Below are positions 8,913 through 36,943 of a DNA stretch of 64,000 nt, piece by piece. The DNA lies in assembly GCA_050331735.1 (NCBI GenBank), contig JBHJGN010000022.1, forward strand, positions 64,001 to 128,000, given 5' to 3'. The notes below the pieces were generated by a model. That model did not search any database. It was not told where the DNA came from and worked only from the letters and a program-made list of their open reading frames with translations. Source of the DNA: Cyanophyceae cyanobacterium (GTDB lineage Bacteria; Cyanobacteriota; Cyanobacteriia; Cyanobacteriales; JBHJGN01). Position numbers and translations under genes: made by a program. The first letter of the stretch is position 1; the number at the start of each line of letters is the position of its first letter.

Positions 8913-10322
8913 TTACTCCTCCTCGACATCTTTGAGCTGAAGGAGAGTGGCCAGACCTGTTGCTTGCAGCATTTCATCAAAGGTATCTGGCTGTGCTAAC
9001 TTAAGCGCCAACAAGCCGGTACTCATTAACACCAGAATGGCAACTCCACTTCCAAGCCACTGTCCTACGGCTGTGTTTTTTTTGGCCGTTTGATGATGGT
9101 TGAAGAGTTCATCGGTTAACCACTGGGTTGTGGCTTTGAAGTTGTGTACCGAGTTAGGCAATAGCTCTAGATACGTCCCTTGACGAATCAGGTGACCGAC
9201 CTGACCAGAGACGATCAGGCGGTCAAACAAATTGGCGGCTCCTTCTCCAAGTCCGAGCTTCATTAAAGTTCCCCTCAGATGCACAGAGGCGGGCTTCAGG
9301 GGCTTTCCTTTGGCCAGGGCTGCCAGATTGTGAGCGATCGCCGCTCCCTGCTGATAGGCCACCTGGGCAGTGGCTGGCAGGTGGGCATCGCAATAGGCAC
9401 AGTCTCCTGCCGCGAAGACCTCGGGGAAGTCGGGAAGCTGCAAAGTTGGAGTAACCTGCAACCGTCCAGTGCGATCGCGGCGGTCTTGAGAAACGGGTAG
9501 TTCCTCAATCAGTGGATTGACGGTATTCCCGGCAGTCCAGATGGTGGTTGCACAGGGCAGTTGTTGGCGCTGGCCGTTTTGTTCGTAGGCTACCCACTCC
9601 GGTGAAACGGCTTTCACAGCGGCTTTGAACTCTAACTCTACAGCAACTGTGCGTCTTTGCATTGCTCTAACGGCTGTTTCCCGCAGATGAGAATTGATAT
9701 CTCCTTTGAGAATTTCTTGAGAGCGGTTAAGAATCACAATGCGAATTTCTTGGGCATTGCCGCCCAGTTTGGCGTACCACTGCGGGAGTAAATCGGCAAG
9801 CGTTAGGGCCATTTCTACTCCGGCTGGACCCGCCCCGACAACGGCTACCGTCAGCAAAGCACGTCGCTCGGATTCAGATTGAGTTTGACTAGCCCGCTGT
9901 AGGCAGTTTCGCAGGTGTTGCTTAAGCTGCTGAGCATCCTCACTGCTCCGAAAAGGCATGGAGTGCTCTGCGGCTCCTTCGGTATGGAAGTAGTTAGCAG
10001 TGCTGCCCAGGGCAAGGACCAAGTTGCTGTAGGAATAGCATAAGCCAGAAGCCAGTTTGACTTCATGTTTGGGCAGATCGATTTCTGTTACCCGATCCTG
10101 CACGTAAGCTATCCCGCTACAGGTCAACAGTTCTTCAAATCGGGGAGACACCTGATCCGTCGTCATCTCGACGCTCAGTAACTCGTACAGCAGTGGCTTG
10201 AAGACAAACCGCTCCGCTCGATCGATTAAGATCACGGGTCGAGGATAGCGCCTATGACACAGGTGCAAAGCGGTGAACAACCCAGCAAAGCCTGCTCCTA
10301 AAATCACTGTTGGTTTAGTCAT
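8913..10322 (-). CDS. Type II NAD(P)H dehydrogenase (NDH-2 family)
   Basis: GAGFAG, FKPLLYE, VVGAGPAGVEMA, IWTAG, FAAGD, PATAQVAYQQG; C-terminal TM helix. Confidence 0.88.
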   Translation of the reverse strand: MTKPTVILGAGFAGLFTALHLCHRRYPRPVILIDRAERFVFKPLLYELLSVEMTTDQVSPRFEELLTCSGIAYVQDRVTEIDLPKHEVKLASGLCYSYSNLVLALGSTANYFHTEGAAEHSMPFRSSEDAQQLKQHLRNCLQRASQTQSESERRALLTVAVVGAGPAGVEMALTLADLLPQWYAKLGGNAQEIRIVILNRSQEILKGDINSHLRETAVRAMQRRTVAVELEFKAAVKAVSPEWVAYEQNGQRQQLPCATTIWTAGNTVNPLIEELPVSQDRRDRTGRLQVTPTLQLPDFPEVFAAGDCAYCDAHLPATAQVAYQQGAAIAHNLAALAKGKPLKPASVHLRGTLMKLGLGEGAANLFDRLIVSGQVGHLIRQGTYLELLPNSVHNFKATTQWLTDELFNHHQTAKKNTAVGQWLGSGVAILVLMSTGLLALKLAQPDTFDEMLQATGLATLLQLKDVEEE

Positions 10323-11889: not shown

Positions 11890-14736
11890 ATGAGTCGCCT
11901 GCAAACATTACAAAATTACGGCCAGTCCGTCTGGCTAGACTATATTCGACGGAGTTCTATTGTCAGTCATGAAATAGAGCGATTAATCAGCGAAGATGGC
12001 TTAAAGGGGGTGACCTCAAATCCCGCTATCTTTGAAAAGGCCATTGGGGGCAGTACAGACTACGATACGGCTCTTTCTACTCTAGAAAAAGACCGCGATC
12101 GCGAGGCGATGGCGCTCTATGAGCAGTTAGCCATCGAAGACATTCAGGCAACGGCGGATATTCTTAAGCCCGTCTACGAAGAAACCAATCGTCGGGATGG
12201 GTACGTCAGCTTGGAAGTCTCGCCGTATTTGGCTAACGACACCGAACGCACTATTTTAGAGGCGCGTCGGCTGTGGGAAGCAGTCGGACGGGAAAACCTG
12301 ATGGTGAAAATCCCGGCAACCGATGCGGGGATTCCGGCGATTCGGCAAGCGATCAGCGAGGGGATTAACGTCAATGTAACTCTGCTATTTGACCGGGCAT
12401 ATTACGAGCGGGTTGCCGAGGCCTACATCGGCGGACTCGAAGCCTACGCTCAATCCGGTGGCGATGTGTCGCGGGTAGCGAGCGTAGCGAGTTTCTTCAT
12501 CAGCCGCATTGATAGCAGCGTAGATAGTTTAATCAACGACAAACTCAAGCAGACCACTGACCCCCAGGAAAAGGAGATTTTAGAAAGCCTGTTGGGGAAA
12601 GTGGCGATCGCCAACGCCAAGCTGACCTATCAGTATTCGCAACACCTCTATCAAAGCGATCGCTGGCAAAAGCTCGCCGCTCAAGGCGCTCAGCCGCAGC
12701 GGTTGCTGTGGGCCAGTACGGGAACCAAAAATCCTCAGTACAGCGATGTACTGTATGTCGAAGAACTAATCGGTTCTGACACCGTTAATACCGTTCCCCC
12801 GGCGACATTTTCGGCCTTCCGCGATCATGGCGAATCCCGCTCTAGCTTAGCGGAAAACGTGGCCGAGGCGGAGGAAGTGATTACTAACTTAGCCAAGGTC
12901 GGCATTTCTTTGAGCGAAGTGACCACAAGCCTGCTCAATAAAGCCGTACAGCTCTTTGCGGAAGCTTTTGATAAGCTCCTCAGCACCATCGAGAAGAAAC
13001 GCGAGGCGGTGTTAGCCGATGACCTCGATTGCTTAACCTATCAACTGCCCGAAGACCTGACCCAGAAAGTTCAGGACTCCTTAGTAGAGTGGCGCAAAGC
13101 GGGCAAAATTCGCCGTCTGTGGGACCGCGATGCCTCTTTGTGGACCAATGAAGACGAAAACCGCTGGTTAGGCTGGCTCTGTACCACCGAAGACCAGTTA
13201 GGACACATTGAGCGACTCCAGCAGCTCGCGGAAGAAAGCAAGCAGTTTAAGTACGTTCTCTTGCTCGGCATGGGCGGCTCTTCCCTTTGTCCAGAAGTGA
13301 TGAAGCTGACCTTTGGCCGAGTGTTAGGGGCTCCCGAACTGCTGATTCTTGACTCTACCGATCCGGCGCAGGTTAAGACGGTTGAAGCGCAGATTGAGCT
13401 CACCAAAACGTTATTTATCGTTTCCAGTAAGTCGGGCAGTACCCTAGAGCCCAACATCTTCAAGCAGTATTTCTTCGACCGCCTCAGTCAAATTGTCGGT
13501 GCCGAGGCGGCGGGTCAGCAGTTTATTGCCGTTACCGATCCGGGGTCCAAGCTTGAGAAAGTAGCAAAAGCAGATCACTTTCGCCATATCTTCTACGGCA
13601 TTCCCAGCATTGGCGGTCGCTACTCGGCCCTGTCTAACTTTGGCATGGTTCCGGCGGCAGCAATGGGCGTGGATGTGGCTAAGCTATTAGATCTCGCGGA
13701 GGAGATGGTGCATTCCTGTGCGCCTTCGGTTCCCGCAGAAGACAACGCTGGCGTGGTGCTCGGAACGATTCTTGGTGTCTTGGCTAATGAGGGACGCGAT
13801 AAAGTTACCCTAATTACGTCTCCCGGCATTGGCGATCTCGGAGCTTGGCTCGAGCAGCTCCTCGCTGAATCCACCGGTAAGCAAGGAAAAGGACTGATTC
13901 CGGTCGATCTCGAACCTCTGGGAGCACCGGAGCAATACGGCAGCGATCGCCTGTTTGTCTACGCGCGGCTAACGGCGGCTCCCGATCCTGAGCAGGATGC
14001 CGCTATCGAGAAACTCAAGCAAGCCGGACAGCCGGTGGTCAACATCTCCGTCAGAGATCGCTATCACATCGCTCAGGAATTCTTCCGCTGGGAAGTGGCA
14101 ACGGCAGTTGCCGGGTCGATTATTGGCATCAATGCCTTTAACCAACCCGATGTCGAAGCGAGTAAAATTGCCACGCGGGAACTCACCTCGGAGTACGAAC
14201 AAACTGGAACCTTGCCTCCTGAGTCTCCGATTTTCAGCGAGTCTGGCATCCAGCTATTTACAGATGATAACAACGCGGCCTTCTTAAACGAAACAGTCGG
14301 CAGCGAACCCAGTTTGTCTCAATACCTCCAGGCTCACCTCCAGCGACTCACCGCCGGAGACTACTTTGCGCTGCTGGCCTATATCGAAATGAACCAGCCG
14401 CATCAAGAGCAGCTACAGGCCATCCGTCAGTCAATCCGCGATCGCTTCAAGGTGGCCACCTGCTTGGGCTTCGGTCCTCGCTTTCTCCACTCCACCGGAC
14501 AGGCGTACAAAGGCGGACCCAACTCCGGAGTCTTCCTGCAAATCACCTGTGACGATGCCCTCGATCTCAGCGTACCCGGACAAAAATATAGCTTTGGAGT
14601 CGTCAAAGCCGCGCAAGCGCGAGGGGACTTCCAGGTATTAGGAGAGCGCCACCGCCGCGCTTTGCGAGTGCATCTTAGCAAGGATGTAGAAGCTGGACTG
14701 GCGACGTTGCAGCAGGCTATCGAGCAGGCGATCTAG
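11890..14736 (+). CDS. Bifunctional transaldolase / glucose-6-phosphate isomerase
   Basis: N-terminal GQSVWLD, GVTSNPAIF, MVKIPAT, LLWASTGTK; C-terminal GMGGSSL, SKSGSTLE, IGGRYSALS, EQLLAESTGK, FNQPDVEASK. Confidence 0.95.
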   Translation: MSRLQTLQNYGQSVWLDYIRRSSIVSHEIERLISEDGLKGVTSNPAIFEKAIGGSTDYDTALSTLEKDRDREAMALYEQLAIEDIQATADILKPVYEETNRRDGYVSLEVSPYLANDTERTILEARRLWEAVGRENLMVKIPATDAGIPAIRQAISEGINVNVTLLFDRAYYERVAEAYIGGLEAYAQSGGDVSRVASVASFFISRIDSSVDSLINDKLKQTTDPQEKEILESLLGKVAIANAKLTYQYSQHLYQSDRWQKLAAQGAQPQRLLWASTGTKNPQYSDVLYVEELIGSDTVNTVPPATFSAFRDHGESRSSLAENVAEAEEVITNLAKVGISLSEVTTSLLNKAVQLFAEAFDKLLSTIEKKREAVLADDLDCLTYQLPEDLTQKVQDSLVEWRKAGKIRRLWDRDASLWTNEDENRWLGWLCTTEDQLGHIERLQQLAEESKQFKYVLLLGMGGSSLCPEVMKLTFGRVLGAPELLILDSTDPAQVKTVEAQIELTKTLFIVSSKSGSTLEPNIFKQYFFDRLSQIVGAEAAGQQFIAVTDPGSKLEKVAKADHFRHIFYGIPSIGGRYSALSNFGMVPAAAMGVDVAKLLDLAEEMVHSCAPSVPAEDNAGVVLGTILGVLANEGRDKVTLITSPGIGDLGAWLEQLLAESTGKQGKGLIPVDLEPLGAPEQYGSDRLFVYARLTAAPDPEQDAAIEKLKQAGQPVVNISVRDRYHIAQEFFRWEVATAVAGSIIGINAFNQPDVEASKIATRELTSEYEQTGTLPPESPIFSESGIQLFTDDNNAAFLNETVGSEPSLSQYLQAHLQRLTAGDYFALLAYIEMNQPHQEQLQAIRQSIRDRFKVATCLGFGPRFLHSTGQAYKGGPNSGVFLQITCDDALDLSVPGQKYSFGVVKAAQARGDFQVLGERHRRALRVHLSKDVEAGLATLQQAIEQAI

Positions 14737-27023: not shown

Positions 27024-28079
27024 ATGCCACCTCTCTTGAAGACTTGTCGTCTAGACTGCCCTAAGCAAATTCAGAGGCGTTTTCTAGCCGCAGCTTCCAG
27101 CTATTCAACGACCCCCTGTCTGTCGGAGGAGGCTCTGCTCGTCTTGTTGAGCCAGCTCTATTTCAACCCCAAGTTAAGTAAGGTAGAAATCGTGGAATCA
27201 AGATCATTTACTGTCAAAGCTCCTTGTCGTCCTCAAAGTGGCGATCGCTTTGGGTCTTCTTACCCGAAGCAGCCGTTTATATCCTCTCCTACCCCAGAGT
27301 CGGCAATAGGTCAGGAGCTCAGTCAACTCGCCGAGATTGGAGCCAGAGCCGCCGCCCTCGTTCATGAAATGCGGAATCCGCTGACGACGATCTTGATGGG
27401 CCTTACGTCTCTTCAGAAAACCGAGCAGCCAGAACCAGTCGAGACGCGATTGAGTCTCGCCCTAGAAGAGGCAGAGCGACTTCAGCGCTTAATCGACGAA
27501 ATTTCGCTGTATGCAAAGCCCTTGGTCGTTCAGCGTCACGAGCTAGAGCTGAACAGTTTGAGTCAAGAAATGCTCGCGAGCCTCACACTTCCTGAGTCGC
27601 TGGAGCGCAAAATTAATTTTATCGGGACGAGCTGTGCTGTTTGGATCAAAGGCGATCGCGACAAGCTGAAGCAAGTCTTTATCAACTTATTGACCAATGC
27701 CTGTGAGGCTATTTCCTCCCGCGAAGTTGTTACCTTAACCCTGAATCCACAGCCAGCCAATAATTTAGTGTGGGTTCGTCTCCACAATGGCGGACGACCG
27801 ATTCGGCCAGAGGTGTTAGCTCAGCTCACGCAGCCGTTTTTTACCACCAAATCCAACGGAAACGGCCTTGGATTAGCGATTGTAAAGCACATTGTCGAGG
27901 CTCATGGCGGTCAATTGGTCATCAAGTCCTCCGGCGCTGGCACAACCGTCAGCGTTGGTTTCCCCATCACTCGGCTCATTCCCGAAGAAGACAGAAGCAG
28001 ACCGCTCCGCAGAAGACTCTATCGGCAAAATGTCACGGTACTTGATAAGTCCGCACAAAAGCTCCAGAAAAGTCTATAA
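27024..28079 (+). CDS. Histidine kinase (HisKA + HATPase_c), no recognisable sensor domain
   Basis: VHEMRNPLT H-box, QVFINLLTNACEA, PFFTTK, GNGLGL; true start uncertain. Confidence 0.85.
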   Translation: MPPLLKTCRLDCPKQIQRRFLAAASSYSTTPCLSEEALLVLLSQLYFNPKLSKVEIVESRSFTVKAPCRPQSGDRFGSSYPKQPFISSPTPESAIGQELSQLAEIGARAAALVHEMRNPLTTILMGLTSLQKTEQPEPVETRLSLALEEAERLQRLIDEISLYAKPLVVQRHELELNSLSQEMLASLTLPESLERKINFIGTSCAVWIKGDRDKLKQVFINLLTNACEAISSREVVTLTLNPQPANNLVWVRLHNGGRPIRPEVLAQLTQPFFTTKSNGNGLGLAIVKHIVEAHGGQLVIKSSGAGTTVSVGFPITRLIPEEDRSRPLRRRLYRQNVTVLDKSAQKLQKSL

Positions 28080-29190
28080 ATCTAAAGAAAATCTAACAAA
28101 GAGCGGTTTTGGGAAGAAACTGGGCCACAATAAATGTATTAATAAATACAAAACGGGGTCAGCCAGAATAAAGACCCTGAATATAGCTAAAACGAATACA
28201 TTTGCCAGAGCGCTAATTTCCTATTCAATAGGGGGTTAGCGCTTTTTGGCTAGCCAGTGAATTCCTGACTCTTGGCTAATTGTTACAAGAAATCAAAGTT
28301 TTGCTAACTTTCCGTAAAAACGGTGCTTTCTGGCTGAATAAAGGATAGAAATAGCCAAGTCAGACGAATTATGAAAAATTTAGCTGTGGCAGATATTTTC
28401 TATCTAGAGAAGCACCGCTGCCAACTTTCACAAGAAGCTTCACCAATATTTCCCAAAAAACTATTAGCAATCTCTAAAAGAATGTGTTCTTCCATACAAG
28501 TTGCTTCCCAATCGAGCCACTAATAGCGCAGTAGTAAAGCCTAAACAACACTCAATAAACCGCTGTCAAACAGGAGCGCAACCTGTTGTCAAGCGCTAGT
28601 GACCGCTAGCGAAACAACTAGCTAATTCAAGGAATAGACTGCGGTATTTATTCAAAAATAACAGGTTCAAACTTGTAGATTTAGCGATCAGCTCTAAAAC
28701 GAGCTTTCTGTCCTAAATTTATCAGTTGACAAAAAAAAACTACACATCTATCGTAAGGATGATAGCTAAAGTACTTAGTTCCCTTAGTCCTTGTTTAGGG
28801 CTTCTCCAATGATTCTGCCAAAGCCAGAATATCGCTGTCGGGCTACGTTAGCCTGGCAAAAGTTGCTCAAGCGTCAATCTGACTCTAGATGGGACGCTCA
28901 GAAAAATTTCAGACAAAAAAATATTCATCGAGAAACTAGCAATTTACTTCGTTGAAGCATTGCTATACGTCATCGGGGTGATGAACACCCCATGAGGAGG
29001 CTTGGCGTGTTTTCCACATCAAGGCTTCACCAACAGGCGATCGCAGTTCTCCCAAGGACTGGGAAAATGCCAACAAGCAGGGGGAATTTTCCTCAAAGAG
29101 TTTTTTTGTGATGGGGATGGATGAGGAGTTTGAGAGAGCAAATCGGTCATCCAGAGTACAAGCAAAACAAGATCAGGAGGCAATCGGATT

Positions 29191-32100
29191 GTGGCTAAAA
29201 GAAGGCGGCGAGGAGTAGTACTGACTCCTGAAGGACTAGACAAGTTTCAGTCTGCCAGACTGAAATCTGAATCAGAACACAACTACGGCGAACGCTACAC
29301 TTACGAGAAGTTGAGCGAAATTACCTATTTAGATATCCACACTATTAAAAGAGTCCTGGATTGTCAAGAAGGAGTAGACAAGCGGACCCTCGAACGACTG
29401 TATATTAGCTTTGAGCTAGAACTCACCGAAGACTGCTACACCCAACCCAACCCCCATCGGCGGAGAAGCTGGGGCGAAGCGATGTGCGTCGCTACTTTTT
29501 ACGGGCGGACTGGGGAGCTATCTATTTTAGAAGGGTGGCTCCTCAAAGACCGCTGCCGAATCGTCACGCTATTAGGCATGGGGGGAGTCGGCAAAACCTG
29601 TTTGTCGGTGAAGCTGGCGAGACAGGTTCAGGAACGGTACGATTTGGTGTACTGGTGTAGTTTGAGAGATGCTCCGCCGGTAGAAGAAGTGCTCATAAAT
29701 GCTGTCGAGTTTCTCTCCGATGAGAAAGAAACAGCCGCAGATTTACCAGATAGCCTCAAGGGCAAGATTTCGCGGCTGATCGAGTATCTGCGGGAATCGC
29801 GCTGTTTGCTGGTGCTAGACAATATGGAGTCGATGCTCTGTAGCGGCAAACGAGCCGGACAGTTTCGCGAGGGGTATGAAGGGTATGGAGAGCTACTGCG
29901 GCGTCTTGGTGAAACCGAGCACCAGAGTAACATTCTGCTGACCTCAAGAGAAAAACCGAAGCAGGTGGCCTTTCTAGAGGGAGAGGAACTGCCTGTGCGG
30001 ACTTTCCGGGTTGGCGGCTTAGCCGAGGAAGCCGGAGAGGAACTGCTCAAGCTCAAGGGATTGTCGGGAACTGAGCCAGAGTATAGAGCTTTGATCGAGC
30101 ACTACGGCGGCAATCCTCTCGCCTTGAAGGTGGTGGCGACGACGATTCGCGATCTGTTTGCCGGAGATATTGGTGACTTTTTAGCCCACGAAACGGCGGT
30201 TTTTGGAGATATCCGTGACCTGTTGGATCAGCAGTTCGAGCGGCTTTCGGATGTTGAGAAGGAGATTGTCTACTGGCTGGCCATTAATCGGGAGTCGTCG
30301 ACCATTGCCGATGTACAGGAAGATATGGTTTCGGCTGTTCCTAAACAGTCTTTGCTAGAGGGGTTGGAGTCGCTATCGCGGCGGTCTTTGGTAGAGCGGG
30401 ATGCCTCGCGGTTTACGCTGCAAAACGTGGTCATGGAGTACGTGATTAACTGTTTTGTGGAGCGGGTTTGCCAGGAGATTGTTTCTTTGCAGCTCAAGTT
30501 ATTTCGCTATCATGCGGTGATTAAAGCGACAGCGAAGGACTACGTGAGGGAAACCCAAACGCGGCTGGTGCTTCAGCCAATTCTGGATGGGTTAACGGTT
30601 TTTTTTAAGTGTAAGCAGAACGTAGAGGGGGGGCTGAATAAGGTTTTATCTCTGTTGCGAGAGGGTCCGCCCTTGGAGATGGGGTATGCCGGGGGGAATG
30701 TGTTGAATTTGCTATGCCATTTAGGGACAGATCTGACAGGCTATGATTTTTCTAATTTGGCCGTGTGGCAGGCGGATTTGCGGTGTGTTTGTTTGCATGA
30801 CGTGAATTTCCAGAATGCGGATTTATCTAAGTCAGCGTTTGCCGAGGCATTTGGTGGGATTTGGTCAGTGGCTTTTAGCCCTGATGGGACGATTTTGGCT
30901 GTGGGAGATACTAAAGGCGAGATTCTTTTACGACAAGTAGAAAACGGTCGGCCAATTTGTAGCTTCAAAGGACACAATGGTTGGGTAGTCTCCCTGGCTT
31001 TTAGTCCTAATAGTAATACTTTGGCAAGTAGTAGCTGTGACTGTACAGCCAAGCTATGGGATATTAACACTGGTCAATGCCTTCATACTTTAAAAGAACA
31101 TACACAAGAAGTCTGGTCTGTGCTCTTTAGTCCCGATAGTAAAACTTTAGTAAGTGGGTGTGATGATAACAAAGTAAGACTATGGGATGTATCTACAGGC
31201 AAATGTTTCAAGGTTTTCCAGGGACATACAGATTGTGTGCTTTCGGTAGTCTTTAATTTAGATGGACGAGAAATACTAAGCGGAAGCCACGATAATACAA
31301 TTAGGCTCTGGGATATTGAGAGTGGGAAGTGCAAAAAAACTTTTCATGGGCACGATGATGGAGTACGATCTCTTGCTGTTAGTTCAGACGGTCAAACTTT
31401 TGCCAGTAGTAGTAACGATTGCACGATTAGACTTTGGAATATACAAACGGGTGAATGCCTCAAAGTTTTTCAGGGGCACACTAATGTAGTATTATCTGTC
31501 GATCTTTGCTTGCAGAGCAGTCTTCTAGCTAGTAGCAGTATCGACCAAACAGTAAGACTGTGGGATGTTGGCACAGGGGAATGTCTAAAAGTTTTTCACG
31601 GGCACTCTAATTACGTTAACTCAGTCGATTTTAGCCCGCAGAACAATTTTTTAGCTAGTGGTAGTCACGATCAGACAGTGCGACTGTGGAATACTAAGAC
31701 TTATCAATGCTTTAAAACTTTTCAGGGACACAACAGTCAAGCTCTTTCAGTTGTTTTCAGTCCAGATGGTCAGATGCTAGCCAGTGGCGGACACGACCAA
31801 AAGGTAAGGCTGTGGGATATTGGTATTGATCGAGCTATTAAAACACTTCACGAACATACCAATTGGGTTTGGTCAGTAGCTTTTAGCCCTCAAGGTAATC
31901 TTTTAGTTAGTGGTAGTGGTGACAGAACTGTAAGATTGTGGAATGTCAGTACGGGAAAGGCCATCAAAATATTTCAGGGTCATCAGGCTGTAGTTCGCTC
32001 AGTTGCTTTTAGTTCTGACAATTGTACCCTAGCCAGTGGTAGCGAAGATAAAACAATTAGACTCTGGGATATTAATACTAGTCAGACTTTAGGAGTTTTG

Positions 32101-32727
32101 CAGGGACATCAAGCTGAAATCTGGTCAATAGCCTTCAGTCCCGATGGCCAAATGTTGGCAAGTAGTTCCTTAGACGGAACGGCAAAGCTATGGGATGTCC
32201 ATACTGGTAGCTGTCTTAAAACTTTGGAAGGACACACAGCTTGGGTTTGGTCAGTAGCTTTTTGTCCAGATAACAAAACTTTAGCAACTACTAGCCCAGA
32301 TCAAACTTTAAGACTTTGGGATGTTGGTACTGGTGAGTGCAAAACAATTTTGCATGAGGATATAGGGTATTCACAGTTAGTTGCTTTTAGTAAAGATGGC
32401 CGGATAATAGCTAGCTGCAACCACAATCACAACATTAGATTGTGGAAGGTTAATACTAAAGAATGCTTCAAGGTATTGCCGGGTCATAAAGCTTTGATCA
32501 ATTCGATTGCATTTTGTCCTGACAATTACACTCTGGTTAGTAGCAGTGAAGATGAAACAATCAAATTCTGGAATATCAGAAGTGGAGACTGTATTAAAAC
32601 TTTGAAGATTGAGAAACCTTACGAAGATATGAATCTTATGGGAGTTACTGGTTTAACTGAAGCAGCCATAGATTCGCTCAAAGAACTCGGAGCAATTAGC
32701 AGCTTGCCAGATATAAGTTCGAAATAG
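29191..32727 (+). CDS. STAND protein: N-terminal HTH-like domain, NB-ARC, C-terminal WD40 repeats
   Basis: FYGR, Walker A GMGGVGKT, Walker B LLVLDN, LLTSRE, GNPLALK, pentapeptide linker, then about 14 GH...WD repeats. Confidence 0.93.
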   Translation: MAKRRRRGVVLTPEGLDKFQSARLKSESEHNYGERYTYEKLSEITYLDIHTIKRVLDCQEGVDKRTLERLYISFELELTEDCYTQPNPHRRRSWGEAMCVATFYGRTGELSILEGWLLKDRCRIVTLLGMGGVGKTCLSVKLARQVQERYDLVYWCSLRDAPPVEEVLINAVEFLSDEKETAADLPDSLKGKISRLIEYLRESRCLLVLDNMESMLCSGKRAGQFREGYEGYGELLRRLGETEHQSNILLTSREKPKQVAFLEGEELPVRTFRVGGLAEEAGEELLKLKGLSGTEPEYRALIEHYGGNPLALKVVATTIRDLFAGDIGDFLAHETAVFGDIRDLLDQQFERLSDVEKEIVYWLAINRESSTIADVQEDMVSAVPKQSLLEGLESLSRRSLVERDASRFTLQNVVMEYVINCFVERVCQEIVSLQLKLFRYHAVIKATAKDYVRETQTRLVLQPILDGLTVFFKCKQNVEGGLNKVLSLLREGPPLEMGYAGGNVLNLLCHLGTDLTGYDFSNLAVWQADLRCVCLHDVNFQNADLSKSAFAEAFGGIWSVAFSPDGTILAVGDTKGEILLRQVENGRPICSFKGHNGWVVSLAFSPNSNTLASSSCDCTAKLWDINTGQCLHTLKEHTQEVWSVLFSPDSKTLVSGCDDNKVRLWDVSTGKCFKVFQGHTDCVLSVVFNLDGREILSGSHDNTIRLWDIESGKCKKTFHGHDDGVRSLAVSSDGQTFASSSNDCTIRLWNIQTGECLKVFQGHTNVVLSVDLCLQSSLLASSSIDQTVRLWDVGTGECLKVFHGHSNYVNSVDFSPQNNFLASGSHDQTVRLWNTKTYQCFKTFQGHNSQALSVVFSPDGQMLASGGHDQKVRLWDIGIDRAIKTLHEHTNWVWSVAFSPQGNLLVSGSGDRTVRLWNVSTGKAIKIFQGHQAVVRSVAFSSDNCTLASGSEDKTIRLWDINTSQTLGVLQGHQAEIWSIAFSPDGQMLASSSLDGTAKLWDVHTGSCLKTLEGHTAWVWSVAFCPDNKTLATTSPDQTLRLWDVGTGECKTILHEDIGYSQLVAFSKDGRIIASCNHNHNIRLWKVNTKECFKVLPGHKALINSIAFCPDNYTLVSSSEDETIKFWNIRSGDCIKTLKIEKPYEDMNLMGVTGLTEAAIDSLKELGAISSLPDISSK

Positions 32728-32764
32728 AGGTTGCAAATTAACAAGATAAGCAAATTACAATAGG

Positions 32765-32800
32765 ATTAAGAGCAGATTCTGTAATACCTGCTCTCAATTG
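32765..32800. terminator. Hairpin between convergent STAND gene and peptide gene
   Basis: GAGCAG...CTGCTC stem flanked by A/T-rich sequence. Confidence 0.45.
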
Positions 32801-32847
32801 TTTGGTTTTTATTACTACGTTACCTGGTTAAGTGTAGTCAAATCTAC

Positions 32848-32991
32848 TCAAAAATAGCAGACAATGTCACTGGTTAGGTCTTGTTTAAACTCCTCAATTA
32901 AGATATCTGCGAGTTCAATTTTAAGTTCTAACTCGTTTAAGACTTCAAAGCTGTTTTCAACGTGCTTGATTTCTGTAGCTGTAGTAATCAT
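32848..32991 (-). CDS. Unannotated 47-aa peptide MITTATEIKHVENSFEVLNELELKIELADILIEEFKQDLTSDIVCYF (candidate RiPP-like precursor)
   Basis: Translated by hand; AAAGGAG RBS about 9 nt upstream of ATG; same strand as and directly downstream of the HDO gene; below the ORF-track length cutoff. Confidence 0.7.
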   Translation of the reverse strand: MITTATEIKHVENSFEVLNELELKIELADILIEEFKQDLTSDIVCYF

Positions 32992-33108
32992 TGCAAAATT
33001 CTCCTTTGGGTTAATTCAGAAAGTAAATTTAAGATTGCTTGAGACCGAATATCTGTTTTATTCGGATGAGGGTGTAATCGCGTAATGCGCACAACGAGCG
33101 TACTTCGC

Positions 33109-34077
33109 CTACAGGCTTTTCTCTAAATTCAGCGGATTCAATCTCTGCTGAATTTCTTCATCTGAGATGTAGCTTTCAGTTGGCGGACTAAAACACAACA
33201 GTGCCGTTTCATAACAGGCTCGCGCTACACGATCGCGCTCTTTGGCAGAAAGCTCTGCTACCATTGCAACTGTCTCTTCTACGTGTTCTGCATCAGCACC
33301 AACACTACTGTGTACGCGCAGGCAGCGGGTAGTATGTACGTTAGCAGGTAGCAAATCCTCTACCTTTTGGATGTACTCCTCGCTAATGCCCATCGCTAGG
33401 CGTTCCATCGTATAGGAATAACCCACACTATCAATTGGGTCATCATCCTGTACGCTACGAGTAAAGTAGTCCATCAAAGCTACCGCAGCAGGAGGGACGA
33501 GTGCTTTCACTACTGCTTCGGCATCGTATCCCAGGGCTTGAATATCGCGGAGAGCAAGCAGATCGTGTCCGGCTTCCTCTTGAGCCTTTTCTCTGGCCCA
33601 CTGTGCCAGTGTAGAGCGACCAGTTAGCGCAAACCGTCGAGCCGCTTTTTGCAACGATGCTGGAACAGAGTGAGTTAAATGATAAGAACCAGCTAAGCGC
33701 CATACCCAGCGCGTTGCTGTCAACGCAGGGGGTCTCACATCTGAATTTACTGCATACTTAGCCGCCGCGATCGCCCCATCTAACAGTTGACGAGTAGTTG
33801 CTACACTTCCGGCCTTTTCCATTGGCTGAGACAGATACAGCAGAGAAGGACTTAGCGGCGGGGTGTTTGCATCTATCTGAAGCAGCCATGCTCGCTCAGC
33901 AGAGGCAACAACAACTTTGTTGGGTGCAATCTTCGCCCATTCTACATCAGGAGAATTAGCGTAATGGGTCGAGAAACCCTCTCTATCGAGTTGAGATGCA
34001 TTGGTTTTATCCAGAGTGAAGGAGACACTCGGATCTCTTTCCCGCTTGTGAGCAGGATGGTTCTGATTAAAGTTCAT
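33109..34077 (-). CDS. Heme-oxygenase-like diiron (HDO / iron-containing redox) enzyme
   Basis: EEAGH, YTMER and VHSSVGADAEH match the E-H-E-H-D-H ligand layout of CADD-like HDO proteins. Confidence 0.75.
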   Translation of the reverse strand: MNFNQNHPAHKRERDPSVSFTLDKTNASQLDREGFSTHYANSPDVEWAKIAPNKVVVASAERAWLLQIDANTPPLSPSLLYLSQPMEKAGSVATTRQLLDGAIAAAKYAVNSDVRPPALTATRWVWRLAGSYHLTHSVPASLQKAARRFALTGRSTLAQWAREKAQEEAGHDLLALRDIQALGYDAEAVVKALVPPAAVALMDYFTRSVQDDDPIDSVGYSYTMERLAMGISEEYIQKVEDLLPANVHTTRCLRVHSSVGADAEHVEETVAMVAELSAKERDRVARACYETALLCFSPPTESYISDEEIQQRLNPLNLEKSL

Positions 34078-34149
34078 AATTCACTTAGAAATTAAATACG
34101 CAGTGGAATTGAAATCGGCATGGCTAACCTTACTAGTGAGAACCTTCGC

Positions 34150-34169
34150 GTTTTGTTGGCAGACAAAAC
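34150..34169. promoter_or_regulatory. Palindromic operator GTTTTGT-TGGCAG-ACAAAAC, copy 1
   Basis: Exact 20-mer, 73 nt from the ATG at 34077. Confidence 0.8.
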
Positions 34170-34356
34170 GATTCCCCATCAGGAATAACCATTACCATTG
34201 ACTCTTTTGCAACCAGGCTTAATTATTTAAGACTGTCAAAAGAGTTTGGTAAACACTCTGCCCAAACGGGCATAGCTTTACCTAACGACCAACTAGCAGG
34301 CTAGCTGGCTTTGGCGATCGCGTTACACTGGCAGGCATAACGTTTTTCAACCAAAT

Positions 34357-35265
34357 CTACGAATTCAGCGTTTTGAGGATGAGCTGAATTTCAAAATCTG
34401 AGACAATATGCTGTCGAGAACGGTTAAAACACAACAGCGCCGTTTCATAGCAGGCTTTCGCCACACAGGTCCGTTCAGCAGCCGTCAGTCCTGCAACCAT
34501 CTCAACGGTTTCTTGAACATCTTCACAATCAATGCCCACGCTTCCGTGCAGCCACGGGCGACTAGCCGCAGCAGGATTGGGCGGCAGCAGTCCTTCGACA
34601 AGCTGGATATACTCTACACCAATTCCGGTGGCAATCCGCTCAATGGTATAAGAATAGCCCACACAGTCAATCGGATTACGGCTTTGGACCCCGAGAGCCA
34701 AATAATTGAGCAAATTATCGGCTTGAGCGGGATGCAATGCTGAGATAACGGCTTCGGCATCGTAGCCTAAGCACTGAATATCTCGTAAAGCCGCTCCATT
34801 GTAATCCTTTTCCCGACTCGCTTTCTGTCTGGCCCAGGTGGCTAAAGACGAGCGATGAGTACTTGCAAAGCGGTGCGCCGCTTCTGCCATTAATGTCGGT
34901 GTTAGGCACGTCAGATGGTAGTGTCCGGCTAGTCGCCAAATCCAGCGCGCCAGCGTTAAATCCGGCAGGATCACGTAAGAATATCGCTGGTAGGCAGCGG
35001 CGATCGCACCATCTAAAAGACTCTGCGTTGAAGCCACACTCCCACTCATGTCCGCCATCGGTTGAGCAAAACGGTCTGAATCGCTCGAACCGTGGGGATA
35101 GAGCCAAACACTACTGGCCGTTGCAACTACTAGAGTTTCTGGTGAAAGTCGTGCCCATTGAGTGTCAAGGGAATTAGCAAGACGCGCCCGAGGAGTCGCT
35201 GCTACCGGTGCAAAGAAGATCCGACTCGGGTCTTCTGGTCCGGCTCGATAGTCGTCATTGTTCAT
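34357..35265 (-). CDS. Paralogous HDO-fold protein with degenerate metal ligands
   Basis: Shares LLDGAIAAA, RWIWRLAGHYHLT, VGYSYTIER, ACYETALLCF with 33109-34077, but EEAGH is REKDY and DAEH is DCED. Confidence 0.75.
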   Translation of the reverse strand: MNNDDYRAGPEDPSRIFFAPVAATPRARLANSLDTQWARLSPETLVVATASSVWLYPHGSSDSDRFAQPMADMSGSVASTQSLLDGAIAAAYQRYSYVILPDLTLARWIWRLAGHYHLTCLTPTLMAEAAHRFASTHRSSLATWARQKASREKDYNGAALRDIQCLGYDAEAVISALHPAQADNLLNYLALGVQSRNPIDCVGYSYTIERIATGIGVEYIQLVEGLLPPNPAAASRPWLHGSVGIDCEDVQETVEMVAGLTAAERTCVAKACYETALLCFNRSRQHIVSDFEIQLILKTLNS

Positions 35266-35337
35266 CGTTATTGACCCAAGAATTCAATACGCTCTATGAG
35301 GAGATGCCAGGAACCGAAGCTAACTTAAAGTGGACTC

Positions 35338-35357
35338 GTTTTGTTGGCAGACAAAAC
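35338..35357. promoter_or_regulatory. Palindromic operator, copy 2
   Basis: Exact 20-mer, 73 nt from the ATG at 35265. Confidence 0.8.
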
Positions 35358-35360
35358 CGC

Positions 35361-35711
35361 TTAAGTTAACGACGTTTCTAGCTTGGCTTCTACCCATTCT
35401 TCGATGAGTTGAGAAAGCACCAACCGCATTGGCACTTGCTCTTGCGTACAGAGGACTTTAAGCTGGACCTTGAGAGACGGAGGCACGTAGGCACTAATCG
35501 TTTCTACGTTGGTCTCCAGGGAGGACTCAGCCTTCTTCAGGGCTGGTTTCTCAGCTTGAAGCCAGTTCCTCAGCAGTTGCTCTAGAATCACGCTCATATT
35601 TAATTCGTGTTGAGCGCAGAGAATCTTAAACTGAAGTTTAAGACGACTAGGAACAGTGGCTTTGACGACAACGCTTTTTTCTCTGTTGTGATACTTCACT
35701 GTTGGTGACAA
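35361..35711 (-). CDS. Tandem ribbon-helix-helix (ParG/CopG-like) DNA-binding protein
   Basis: Internal repeat VKATVPSRLKLQFKILCAQ..MSVILEQLLRNW / ISAYVPPSLKVQLKVLCTQ..MRLVLSQLIEEW. Confidence 0.7.
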   Translation of the reverse strand: MSPTVKYHNREKSVVVKATVPSRLKLQFKILCAQHELNMSVILEQLLRNWLQAEKPALKKAESSLETNVETISAYVPPSLKVQLKVLCTQEQVPMRLVLSQLIEEWVEAKLETSLT

Positions 35712-35967
35712 AAGAATAGAGTGTGAACGTTACTAATTACTATTCAGCACCTTCATCATTTTCACCAGGGAAGTTTTGGGAGATAACTAAAAAAGTTGAC
35801 GCGGGGTGCGGCTGGTGTGTTTGCTAATTTCAACAAGCCAACTGATATCGTTGACGCCACCCTGTTTTTCAGCTACACTAGAAAAAATTAAGTTCGTAAA
35901 AAACTTAAGAATTAAATACGCTTTGTGTCGGGGGCAAACGTCACCTTAGCAATCTCGGTTGAATCAA

Positions 35968-35987
35968 GTTTTGTTGGCAGACAAAAC
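35968..35987. promoter_or_regulatory. Palindromic operator, copy 3
   Basis: Exact 20-mer upstream of the RHH gene. Confidence 0.8.
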
Positions 35988-36526
35988 TTTTCTGAGTCTG
36001 TGCTGGCGGTTGTCTCCTTTTTTATGGGCGGGTACTGCCCAGAGGGGTAAATAACTGGCAGTAGCTGGTCGGTAACGGCAACTTTCAATCCCGGCAGAAG
36101 ACCGACGGGGATCGTGCAATTTGTTAGGTAGCAAAGTGATAAAGGGATAATCTACACTTACTACTTTTATTTGTTTTAGCCGTTTTAGGCCAGTGAAGTT
36201 AAGGAAGTTAAAAAACAGTGCTGCCGGATGAAGGGAAAAAGCAACTTGTTCAATCGCTCTCAAGGATTTATGAAAAGCCTTAGCAGAGCAGCAACGGTTT
36301 GACAAATAATCTTTAGCAAAGAAAGGTCTGTTCACCCTGATGGCAATCTTGGCTATAGATGGGCAATCGTACAGCCTTTCGTTTAAGCTATCTAGCTATG
36401 CTAGCACAAGCAAGAGCGGTTTGGCGTCTCTGTTTGGGTTTGTTACAGGATGAGGAAATTCTCGACCGCGATTAAGACGACGCACAGATAGGGTTAAGCA
36501 TGAAAGGTTTCAGTCCCGTTAGCCAT

Positions 36527-36943
36527 CTAGCTTTCCCCTGCCATTCTCCGAATAAATTCCAGCGGTAACCCATCGGTATCGGCGATAAAAGTCACTTCAT
36601 AAACGCGATCGCCAATGAGCTGCTGCGTTGGCTCTAGCAACACCTTCAGCGGCGCTTCGACTCGCGCCTGTAGCTGCTCTAACCACGTTAGCAAATCGTC
36701 TATCTGCTCCGTGACATCAAAAGAAAGATGATAGTATCCCACGTAATGCTCATCACCAAAGGCATCAGGAGCCGGGTGAGGTTCGGGAATTTGGATCAGC
36801 TCAAGGCGTCCCCCGAGCCCCTCTAGCCAGCAGGCCAGAGTATAACCGGCGGTGAAGCGTTCGCAGACCGTGAAACCCAACTGCTCGTAAAAGGCGATCG
36901 CTCGATGAATATCGGCGGTTCGGATCGAGACGTGGTGTAGCAT
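36527..36943 (-). CDS. VOC/glyoxalase-family protein
   Basis: MLHHVSIRT, FYEQLGF, YHLSF, FIADTDGLPLEF; ATG at 36943. Confidence 0.88.
   Translation of the reverse strand: MLHHVSIRTADIHRAIAFYEQLGFTVCERFTAGYTLACWLEGLGGRLELIQIPEPHPAPDAFGDEHYVGYYHLSFDVTEQIDDLLTWLEQLQARVEAPLKVLLEPTQQLIGDRVYEVTFIADTDGLPLEFIRRMAGES

Follow-up and report, generated by a model that had tools for sequence, protein, structure and literature searches.

A conserved cyanobacterial cassette in which a small peptide and a heme-oxygenase-like di-iron oxidase are co-inherited with the WD40 half of a STAND protein

The locus described here raises the question of why a pair of heme-oxygenase-like di-iron oxidases (HDOs), a gene for a 47-residue peptide and a large STAND protein should lie together in a cyanobacterium, and whether they form one system. 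The genes lie in a stretch of 64,000 nucleotides (the window) from Cyanophyceae cyanobacterium (assembly GCA_050331735.1, contig JBHJGN010000022.1, positions 64,001-128,000), whose genome is denoted G000; L-numbers denote compared loci and G-numbers compared genomes, and coordinates are those of the window unless a locus or contig is named. The cassette is real, conserved and, within the literature searched, undescribed. Our tentative reading, held with rather less than even confidence, is that of a conserved mobile cassette in which a ribosomal peptide signal is modified by the HDO and a WD40/STAND protein is the sensor for that peptide. The grounds are the linkage of the genes, the metal-ligand residues, the co-occurrence of an operator with a ribbon-helix-helix (RHH) gene and the co-inheritance of the WD40 half with its cargo; from these we infer the function, namely the chemistry at the peptide tail, the sensing by WD40 and the transcriptional output. 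The genes of the cluster are:

29191-32727, plus strand: STAND gene, an open reading frame (ORF) of 1178 amino acids with an XRE-like helix-turn-helix (HTH), an NB-ARC domain, a helical linker and 14 WD40 repeats
32848-32991, minus strand: peptide gene, an ORF of 47 amino acids, acidic, with a leader-like helix that is conserved
33109-34077, minus strand: HDO_A, an ORF of 322 amino acids, a heme-oxygenase-like di-iron oxidase
34357-35265, minus strand: HDO_B, an ORF of 302 amino acids, a paralogue of HDO_A with a degenerate metal site
35361-35711, minus strand: tandem RHH gene, an ORF of 116 amino acids with two RHH units in one chain

The minus-strand genes run in the order RHH, HDO_B, HDO_A, peptide, and the STAND gene on the plus strand ends tail to tail with the peptide gene. 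A sequence-only reading of this DNA had described the five genes together with three identical palindromes, and the ORF list, the Pfam scan and a repeat search recovered all of them as described.

The 47-residue peptide is the product of a real, conserved gene and represents an unnamed cyanobacterial family. Its ATG is preceded, at 8 nt, by a GGAG motif. Among species-representative genomes, a scan yielded 21 loci with a relative of the HDO, in Pleurocapsales-type and Nostocales cyanobacteria. A homologue of the peptide lies directly 3' of the HDO, on the same strand, in all 20 loci that have sequence beyond the HDO; the remaining locus of the 21 ends at the HDO. The peptide is also found beside the HDO in L044 and L067, and in a divergent form in L068. 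A profile search gave 108 relatives in the databases; all the named ones are cyanobacterial 'hypothetical' proteins and none has a Pfam domain, and the window peptide itself has no match in Pfam or NCBIfam. In the ESM Atlas the best score for the peptide was 0.84, and that of a lantibiotic cluster 0.77, both under the usable level.

The family follows the pattern E-N-S-L-E-x-L, 7-9 residues, L-E-x-I-M-x-x-E-F-x-x-G-L-P-S-D-(I/L), after which comes a variable tail of about 4-6 residues (PMADF, DGSDV, DSADF, SNAI, CNAV; VCYF in the window, where the C-terminus reads DLTSD-IVCYF). Residues L27, I30, E34, L39 and D42 are invariant in the family alignment (A2), and the layout of conserved leader and variable tail is present both in 23 and in 108 sequences. 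In locus L011 the peptide gene is present four times, as a tandem array of three, in which two copies are identical, and as one more copy at a distance of 3 kb (8963-9642 and 12505-12651 of that locus). A conserved leader with a variable tail, and tandem copies such as those of L011, are typical of precursors, and the peptide may be read as one. Transposase genes lie between the tandem copies and the fourth copy in L011. A single open frame of 382 codons, ending in GLPSDTEFSGW, encodes both the HDO and the peptide in the complete genome G164 (1423-2571 of L030, on G164:C1; also L067); here enzyme and presumed substrate are naturally fused. No further fused or longer form of the peptide turned up among 7995 database candidates scored, which is weak evidence.

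The enzyme adjacent to the peptide belongs to the HDO fold. HDO_A matches PF14518 at 36.8 bits (cut-off 28.9); its best solved relative is PDB 3dde (E 6.5e-12), and there is a weak sequence match to the MboA structure 9ypi (E 1.4). The AlphaFold2 (AF2) model of HDO_A (predicted local distance difference test, pLDDT, 81; predicted template modelling score, pTM, 0.81) matches 3dde, a TenA homologue, UndA, HrmI and CADD at a Foldseek probability of 1.00, and has an N-terminal three-stranded sheet or beta-hairpin region at residues 46-67. The ligand pattern of HDOs, which we take to be ExxH...E...Hx(3-5)Dx2H, was placed on the sequence using the 3dde alignment. All six inferred ligands are kept in HDO_A (E168, H171, E225, H256, D262 and H265), and E-H-E-H-(D/E)-H is kept in 16 of 16 A-type HDOs of a 20-row alignment, in which the degenerate copies, four of four, are without two to three of the six ligands, mostly histidines. 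The fold and the ligand set imply that catalysis by HDO_A would depend on iron and O2.

The second enzyme, HDO_B, has no Pfam match, and its membership of the HDO family is seen only through its 53% identity to HDO_A. It has a tyrosine at the position of H171 and an aspartate at that of H265, so that the six-ligand pattern is broken; the ligand columns thus bear out the earlier suggestion that one HDO is intact and the other degenerate. Because its orthologues in L006 and L008 show the same ligand losses (Tyr at H171, Asp at H265, with a further Tyr at the position of H256), HDO_B is probably a conserved pseudo-enzyme, and not a decaying gene, and would serve as a non-catalytic partner. L007 has a separate degenerate HDO copy, in which other ligands are lost. 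The single HDO of L011 is like HDO_B in its N-terminal half and like HDO_A in its C-terminal half, as if the paralogues had recombined.

The HDO family counts 677 database matches. Its distribution is patchy: of 401 cyanobacterial genomes sampled, 4 have it, as do 2 of 61 relatives (G000 is included each time), and several hundred of these HDOs are annotated only as 'hypothetical' or 'iron-containing redox enzyme'. Residues 41-320 of HDO_A resemble, in the ESM Atlas, a 457-member 'hypothetical protein' cluster (template modelling scores 0.80/0.86), whose members are mostly from Pseudomonadota where the phylum is known.

The sequence-only reading had supposed that the HDO pair modifies the peptide or makes a small metabolite, and structure prediction is consistent with a pairing of HDO_A and peptide. 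The complex was predicted for HDO_A, the peptide and two iron ions, from user-supplied, unpaired alignments. The model scores 0.78, compared with 0.29 for the best of three controls; a score of 0.78 is reached by 116 of 157 solved complexes and by 2 of 215 mismatched pairs, a calibration that is only rough for runs with user-supplied alignments and added iron. The runs share at least 60% of contacts, with a partner pLDDT of at least 56. In the model, peptide residues 37-47 lie against HDO_A residues 168, 171, 223-232, 256, 262 and 265, which include all six inferred ligands, and C45 and Y46 of the peptide are closest to positions 224 and 256. The invariant L27 and I30 pack on the HDO_A helix 100-107, which itself holds invariant residues, and residues 15-27 of the leader lie against the N-terminal hairpin at 56-67. 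The peptide is thus predicted to bind HDO_A with its C-terminal tail at the metal site.

The complex model would suit a tight subunit just as well as a leader-guided substrate. A rival view is that the peptide is a tightly bound subunit, inhibitor or lid of the enzyme, and that the ligand of the STAND protein is a small molecule which the HDO makes by oxidising a free amino acid or lipid. The characterised HDOs among the fold matches (UndA, HrmI, CADD, PolF) act on small molecules, and the only peptide substrate found in the literature searched is a tripeptide made by an ATP-grasp enzyme, that of MboA, as the available part of PMC13185094 describes it. The fusion in G164 speaks no more for a substrate than for a permanent subunit. 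However, the conserved leader, the variable tail and the tandem copies in L011 are typical of precursors, and the tail is modelled at the metal ligands; we hold a subunit role to be distinctly improbable.

In the mechanism that we propose for the signal cassette, the peptide is a precursor whose conserved acidic leader would dock on HDO_A. Its last five to six residues would thread into the di-iron site, where an O2-dependent oxidation would modify the tail; HDO_B, after loss of its histidine ligands, would act as a non-catalytic partner. The peptide, most likely in its modified form, would then serve the convergent STAND protein as ligand at its WD40 propellers, and binding would cause nucleotide exchange and oligomerisation at the NB-ARC domain, upon which the N-terminal HTH would alter transcription.

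The STAND protein has an NB-ARC domain at residues 113-319 (PF00931, E 7.4e-16) and 14 WD40 stretches recognised by Pfam at about residues 555-1178, described as two WD40 propellers; its full-length orthologues are 51-71% identical. Two parts of the gene are referred to below:

30853-32727, plus strand: WD40 sensor half of STAND, co-inherited with the HDO-peptide genes (WD40 tree, approximately unbiased (AU) tests, domain identities and sliding windows)
29191-29445, plus strand: N-terminal domain of STAND, a probable XRE-type HTH, about residues 1-85 (alignment A3, AF2 model and Foldseek)

A convergent full-length STAND orthologue, 53-57% identical, follows the peptide in 15 loci. The same convergent layout is seen in L044, L067 and L068; in L048 a transposase lies in between, and in L007 the STAND gene is cut to 420 amino acids by a DDE transposase. 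Counting these and the window, STAND is adjacent in 21 of the 24 loci with room for it, although many of the Nostoc loci are close kin and the counts overstate their independence. In the three loci without an adjacent STAND gene, each genome holds an orthologue elsewhere, 54-75% identical over the first 550 residues, and the same is true, at 54-75%, of the genomes of two loci in which STAND is cut off by a contig end or a transposase. The flanking genes differ from locus to locus. With the peptide in 20 of 20 loci and STAND in 21 of 24, the gene-neighbourhood analysis speaks for a conserved unit rather than a chance neighbourhood. The gene set put forward as one system by the sequence-only reading holds in its peptide, HDO and STAND parts; the RHH gene and HDO_B are optional, since the Nostocales loci have one HDO and no adjacent RHH. 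Transposases adjoin several of the modules.

The two halves of the STAND protein have different histories. Quick trees were used for the halves; the WD40 tree has 27 rows, four having been dropped (two truncated copies and two on long branches), and the AU tests have 26, L022 having been removed as well because its N-terminus is mis-started. The 14 Nostocales STANDs adjacent to an HDO all fall in one clade of the WD40 tree (support 100), and five STANDs adjacent to a thiamine pyrophosphate (TPP)-dependent enzyme operon together with one adjacent to SDR/GMC genes fall in a second (support 99). In the N-half tree, the TPP-adjacent proteins are nested with one HDO subgroup (support 100); these groups were named after the trees had been seen. 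In the AU tests the N-half rejects HDO monophyly (p 2e-37) and the WD40 half rejects the N-half grouping (p 1.5e-47).

Pairwise identities show the same conflict. Comparing L013 (HDO) with L055 (TPP), the HTH is 92% identical, the NB-ARC domain 80% and the WD40 region 54%, whereas between L013 and L017, both adjacent to an HDO, the corresponding values are 53%, 67% and 76%. A second exchange event is visible in L026, which is 86% identical to L017 in the HDO, 78% in the peptide, 85% in the WD40 region and 61% in the N-half; its identities to L014 are 77%, 62%, 67% and 86%, respectively. Sliding windows place the breakpoints in STAND near residues 350 and 570. Because the WD40 and N-half trees, the AU tests and the domain identities conflict, the exchanged unit appears to consist of the promoter, the cargo operon and the STAND sensor half, the HTH/NTPase half staying with the chromosome. 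Co-inheritance of WD40 and cargo is what would be expected if WD40 reads the product of the HDO and the peptide. In L020 (7243-10185) and L026 (13468-16362), a second STAND paralogue lies directly behind the cassette-linked one and clusters with the SDR/GMC-adjacent STAND of L060.

The same exchange bears on another explanation of the locus, that of a cluster for a peptide that is ribosomally synthesised and modified post-translationally (a RiPP), in which the HDO turns the peptide into a product for export or secretion (a metal binder or an antibiotic, for example), and the STAND regulator, like MalT or AfsR, turns the operon on upon some cue other than the product. All the evidence that ties the peptide to the HDO (their adjacency, the leader and tail layout, the complex model and the fusion in G164) serves this explanation equally, and STAND relatives also adjoin other biosynthetic operons. 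Biosynthesis is known to be controlled by some STAND transcription factors; AfsR, MalT and GutR are named in the accessible part of PMC13581612. However, joint exchange of sensor half and cargo is not called for in a regulator whose cue is unrelated, and such a swap is seen at least twice; nor does the cluster contain an exporter or a protease. We regard a RiPP cluster of this kind as unlikely.

The clade of STAND orthologues is wider than the HDO: matches at E 1e-120 or better are present in 55 of the 401 genomes, and orthologues of about 55% identity occur in four Nostocales genomes that lack an HDO. In L055-L059 (genomes G152, G234, G260, G162 and G372), STAND faces an operon for a TPP-dependent enzyme, a KASIII-like protein and a GDSL hydrolase, with or without an SDR. 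G372 also bears an HDO, and its TPP operon is a second locus (L059).

L055:6029-10058, as an example: TPP operon, with a TPP-dependent enzyme of about 585 amino acids, a KASIII-like protein of about 380 and a GDSL hydrolase of about 322

The HAD-hydrolase gene that adjoins the HDO in L013 also adjoins this conserved TPP operon; between L013 and the TPP loci the first 200 nt or so beside the HAD gene are alignable by eye, and then the similarity ends. The operon looks like an acyloin- or butenolide-type small-molecule pathway that would have replaced the peptide cassette. In L047 (7161-13384, on G433:C1) a STAND orthologue faces a tandem-RHH homologue, an HlyD-type protein, an ABC ATPase and two ABC-2 permeases. 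The HDO-peptide genes of G433 lie on another contig, and the L047 operon could be the exporter that is missing beside them.

The nature of these alternative cargos also bears on the view of the locus as a conflict system of the NLR kind, serving in programmed cell death, kin recognition or defence against phages, in which STAND would sense an invader or non-self and its neighbours would be an effector or a guarded target. The patchy distribution of the HDO given above and the transposases beside several modules would suit such a system, and recombining sensor domains are typical of immune receptors. Cyanobacterial Apaf-1-like WD40 STANDs are, in the part of PMC13581612 at hand, counted as defence-associated. 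Against this, the N-terminus is HTH-like and is not a nuclease, protease or TIR effector, and the alternative cargos are small biosynthetic operons. PADLOC reported only HEAT-ARM_XIII, a match that is driven by the WD40 repeats, and the neighbours, in the window and in the related loci, are housekeeping genes, not defence genes. We consider a conflict system improbable.

A related possibility is a relay of oxygen or iron status, in which the HDO would mark the peptide only when both are available and the WD40 domain would read the state of the mark. An HDO of this fold and ligand set should need both O2 and iron. Modified peptide motifs are common ligands of WD40 propellers, and such a relay would resemble the logic of prolyl hydroxylase and VHL. 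The same STAND N-halves, however, pair with the TPP/KASIII/GDSL operon, which has no evident O2-sensing logic, and a status relay is in our opinion very improbable.

A number of points weigh against the signal cassette as we read it, in addition to the kinship of the Nostoc loci, the naming of the tree groups after the event and the rough calibration of the complex score. The window peptide has DLTSD where the family has GLPSD. Its N-terminus, as read from the translation, has no hydrophobic stretch and no signal sequence. As the sequence-only reading had remarked, no protease or exporter lies in the cluster, which the window ORF list and the Pfam scan uphold, and none, as leader protease or exporter, was found among 37 neighbour ORFs scanned from eight loci. 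The WD40 region and the cargo lie tail to tail, and physical linkage alone could give their co-inheritance. Close relatives of STAND adjoin unrelated operons or none, so that the receptor clade is not tied to this peptide. Lastly, no operator for STAND was found in the window cluster or in the HDO and TPP loci examined, and the assignment of its N-terminus as an HTH, likely but not established, rests on sub-threshold matches.

The sequence-only reading had given the STAND protein an N-terminal HTH in front of the NB-ARC and WD40 domains; the latter two are borne out, and the HTH is seen only below threshold. The first 100 residues or so have a mean column identity of 64% among 13 orthologues (alignment A3). 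The AF2 model of the domain (pLDDT 73.5) has helices at residues 13-29, 38-45, 49-57 and 64-73, and its top Foldseek matches are all XRE-type (HipB, a phage repressor, C.Esp1396I and ClgR); probabilities reach 0.94, and some 65 columns superpose with root-mean-square deviations of 2-3 Å, but the E values, 0.2-1, are not significant. The domain has no Pfam match in the window protein; two orthologues score 21.8 and 18.8 bits on HTH_26 (E 2e-4 and 2e-3), for which the cut-off is 22, and sequence profiles give LacI and HipB at E 0.3-1.3. G000 holds six NB-ARC paralogues, of which only the window copy has this N-terminus. A candidate site for STAND, ACAAGCTGTAA, occurs 5' of the HDO in eight Nostoc loci only. 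It was rejected as the STAND operator: the window has one off-site match, at chance level, and the site is absent from the window cluster and from the promoters of the TPP operons.

The minus-strand genes of the window have an operator of their own, a palindrome of 20 bp, GTTTTGTCTGCCAACAAAAC, and a promoter block associated with it:

35968-35987, minus strand: operator copy 1, 257 nt before the RHH start
35338-35357, minus strand: operator copy 2, between the RHH stop and the HDO_B start; its 3' end precedes the ATG by 73 nt
34150-34169, minus strand: operator copy 3, whose 3' end precedes the HDO_A start codon by 73 nt
34070-34101, minus strand: conserved promoter block beginning GCGTATTTAAT, which runs into the HDO_A start codon (repeat family D2)
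35890-35921, minus strand: vestigial HDO promoter block and start codon 5' of RHH (D2 at 81%; ATGAAC changed to ACGAAC)

The window has exactly three copies of the palindrome, where shuffled sequences expect none, one before each of the larger minus-strand genes, and these are the only copies in the whole 5.57-Mb genome at up to two mismatches. The RHH protein matches PF21432 at 35.7 bits (cut-off 27.2), in two stretches, and has orthologues in L006, L008 and L011. The operator is present, at up to three mismatches, in all three of these other loci in which an RHH gene adjoins the HDO: L006 has seven copies, L008 four (and a fifth with four mismatches) and L011 one (and a copy with a one-base deletion). 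It is absent, at the same threshold, from 17 of 17 loci without an HDO-adjacent RHH gene, 15 of which have STAND. It sits 5' of the RHH gene in the window and in L006, L008 and L011. Near other RHH homologues it was not found in L017, and L047 has only a three-mismatch match inside a gene. Because the palindrome co-occurs only with the tandem-RHH gene, the tandem RHH protein, rather than the HTH of STAND, is the likely binder and probable repressor at the palindrome. The sequence-only reading had left the choice between the two, and of these the RHH protein is the likely one, since the operator tracks its gene, and the STAND HTH is unlikely, since the operator is absent from 15 STAND loci without RHH. 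In the lineage of the window, the tandem RHH protein would act through the palindrome as repressor of three promoters, its own, that of HDO_B and that of HDO_A.

An alignment of 12 promoter units from four organisms (A4) shows an essentially invariant 20-mer, a spacer that drifts and a second block that reaches the HDO start. The units 5' of the RHH genes contain a decayed HDO start, in which ATGAAC has become ACGAAC, CATTAAC or similar forms. Because these units still carry the decayed start, the promoter-operator unit was evidently copied in front of each gene. Extra operator copies, with short decayed 5' ends of HDO genes, lie between HDO_B and HDO_A in L006 (4061-5163) and L008 (7313-7913); here the promoter unit has been duplicated repeatedly. 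G000 has a second tandem-RHH paralogue (45% identity), some 15 kb ahead of the window start (C22:49143-49451; L066:9114-9491), beside a run of histidine-kinase and response-regulator genes, with no copy of the operator and no adjoining exporter.

Other features of the region can be described briefly. Rfam gave no match at E up to 1 across 27800-36700, and a scan for promoters and terminators gave counts no better than shuffled sequences, and no promoter was assigned from it. Among the listed sequencing runs, one DNA run contains the stretch and no RNA run does. The 1.1 kb or so 5' of STAND (28100-29190) contains no ORF of more than 54 amino acids and no Rfam match, and has a low GC content of 0.38-0.42. 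The Nostoc loci have comparable long gaps 5' of STAND, and there the start codon is preceded, at about 30-85 nt, by a conserved inverted repeat (ATCACCT ... AGGTGAT). A 9-bp inverted repeat, AAATTCAGC ... GCTGAATTT, is common to the 3' ends of both HDO genes of the window, within the last codons (33125-33155 and 34362-34403); it could be an RNA hairpin or a mere consequence of conserved amino acids.

In full-text literature, without subscription journals or supplements, neither an HDO acting on a ribosomal precursor nor a description of the module was found, in agreement with the impression of the sequence-only reading that the pathway is undescribed. If the HDO modifies the peptide, it would be the first heme-oxygenase-like di-iron enzyme to act on a ribosomal precursor, within the literature searched, and would define a new class of RiPP. 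If the WD40 half reads the product, bacterial STAND/NLR-type proteins would gain a defined, genetically encoded ligand, and the locus would illustrate the joint exchange of a sensor and its signal.

The proposed chemistry has its nearest counterparts in other oxidative enzymes. In MbnB/MbnC, acting on MbnA, and in other MNIO/DUF692 systems, an O2-activating multi-iron enzyme is, as far as the sources at hand go, likewise accompanied by an adjacent leader-bearing precursor and a non-catalytic second protein. The MNIO/DUF692 enzymes, however, are TIM barrels, whereas HDO_A has the helical heme-oxygenase-like fold; in the place of an MbnC-type partner there is a degenerate HDO paralogue, and the Nostocales modules have no partner at all. 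Closer in fold is MboA, an HDO acetylenase of mangotoxin biosynthesis (PMC13185094, in the part available); according to the same part of that source, its substrate is an ATP-grasp tripeptide and it acts with a redox partner, MboB, and no STAND, whereas the substrate here would be a leader-bearing ribosomal precursor. The seven-helix fold and the E/H/E/H/D/H pattern are common to HDO_A and to 3dde (from Shewanella, of unknown function), UndA, HrmI, CADD and PqqC. HDO_A is 12-21% identical to its structural neighbours, and its family adds the N-terminal hairpin at residues 46-67, which is modelled against the peptide leader.

The STAND protein may be compared with both regulators and immune receptors. 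In the accessible text of PMC13581612, MalT, GutR and AfsR are non-immune STANDs, which likewise join a P-loop STAND NTPase, a repeat sensor and a DNA-binding domain, and some of which control biosynthetic clusters. These have TPR-like sensors and LuxR- or SARP-type DNA-binding domains, whereas the window protein has an XRE-like HTH and two WD40 propellers. A further cousin is the group of cyanobacterial sigma-like r4_2-NB-ARC-TPR proteins (PMC11119718, as far as its available part describes them). The Apaf-1-like WD40 STANDs that the available portion of PMC13581612 reports from cyanobacteria have the NB-ARC and WD40 domains and the phylum in common with it. They differ in having caspase-like or other killing domains at the N-terminus, whereas that of the window STAND is HTH-like and lies beside biosynthetic genes.

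Taken together with the TPP loci, the cassette could belong to a set of polymorphic, pherotype-like loci, in which NLR-like receptors of the XRE-HTH/NB-ARC/WD40 type are combined with swappable cassettes for signal synthesis and sensing, and which would serve cell-cell communication or kin recognition in colonial or filamentous cyanobacteria. The signal would be an HDO-oxidised ribosomal peptide in some loci or a TPP/KASIII-derived small molecule in others. We consider this broader reading unlikely; were it true, a previously unknown communication system would have been built on the architecture of animal and plant innate immunity. In peptide quorum sensing the signal activity resides at the C-terminus of a small precursor, and in the pherotype cassettes comQXP and agrBDC, and in RRNPP systems, the signal genes and the sensor of the receptor vary as a block while the output is conserved. 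Unlike those loci, the cassette has a cytoplasmic NB-ARC/WD40 receptor, a peptide without a secretion signal and neither exporter nor protease nearby; like them, it has putative signal genes and a sensor half that vary together and a presumed output half that is conserved.

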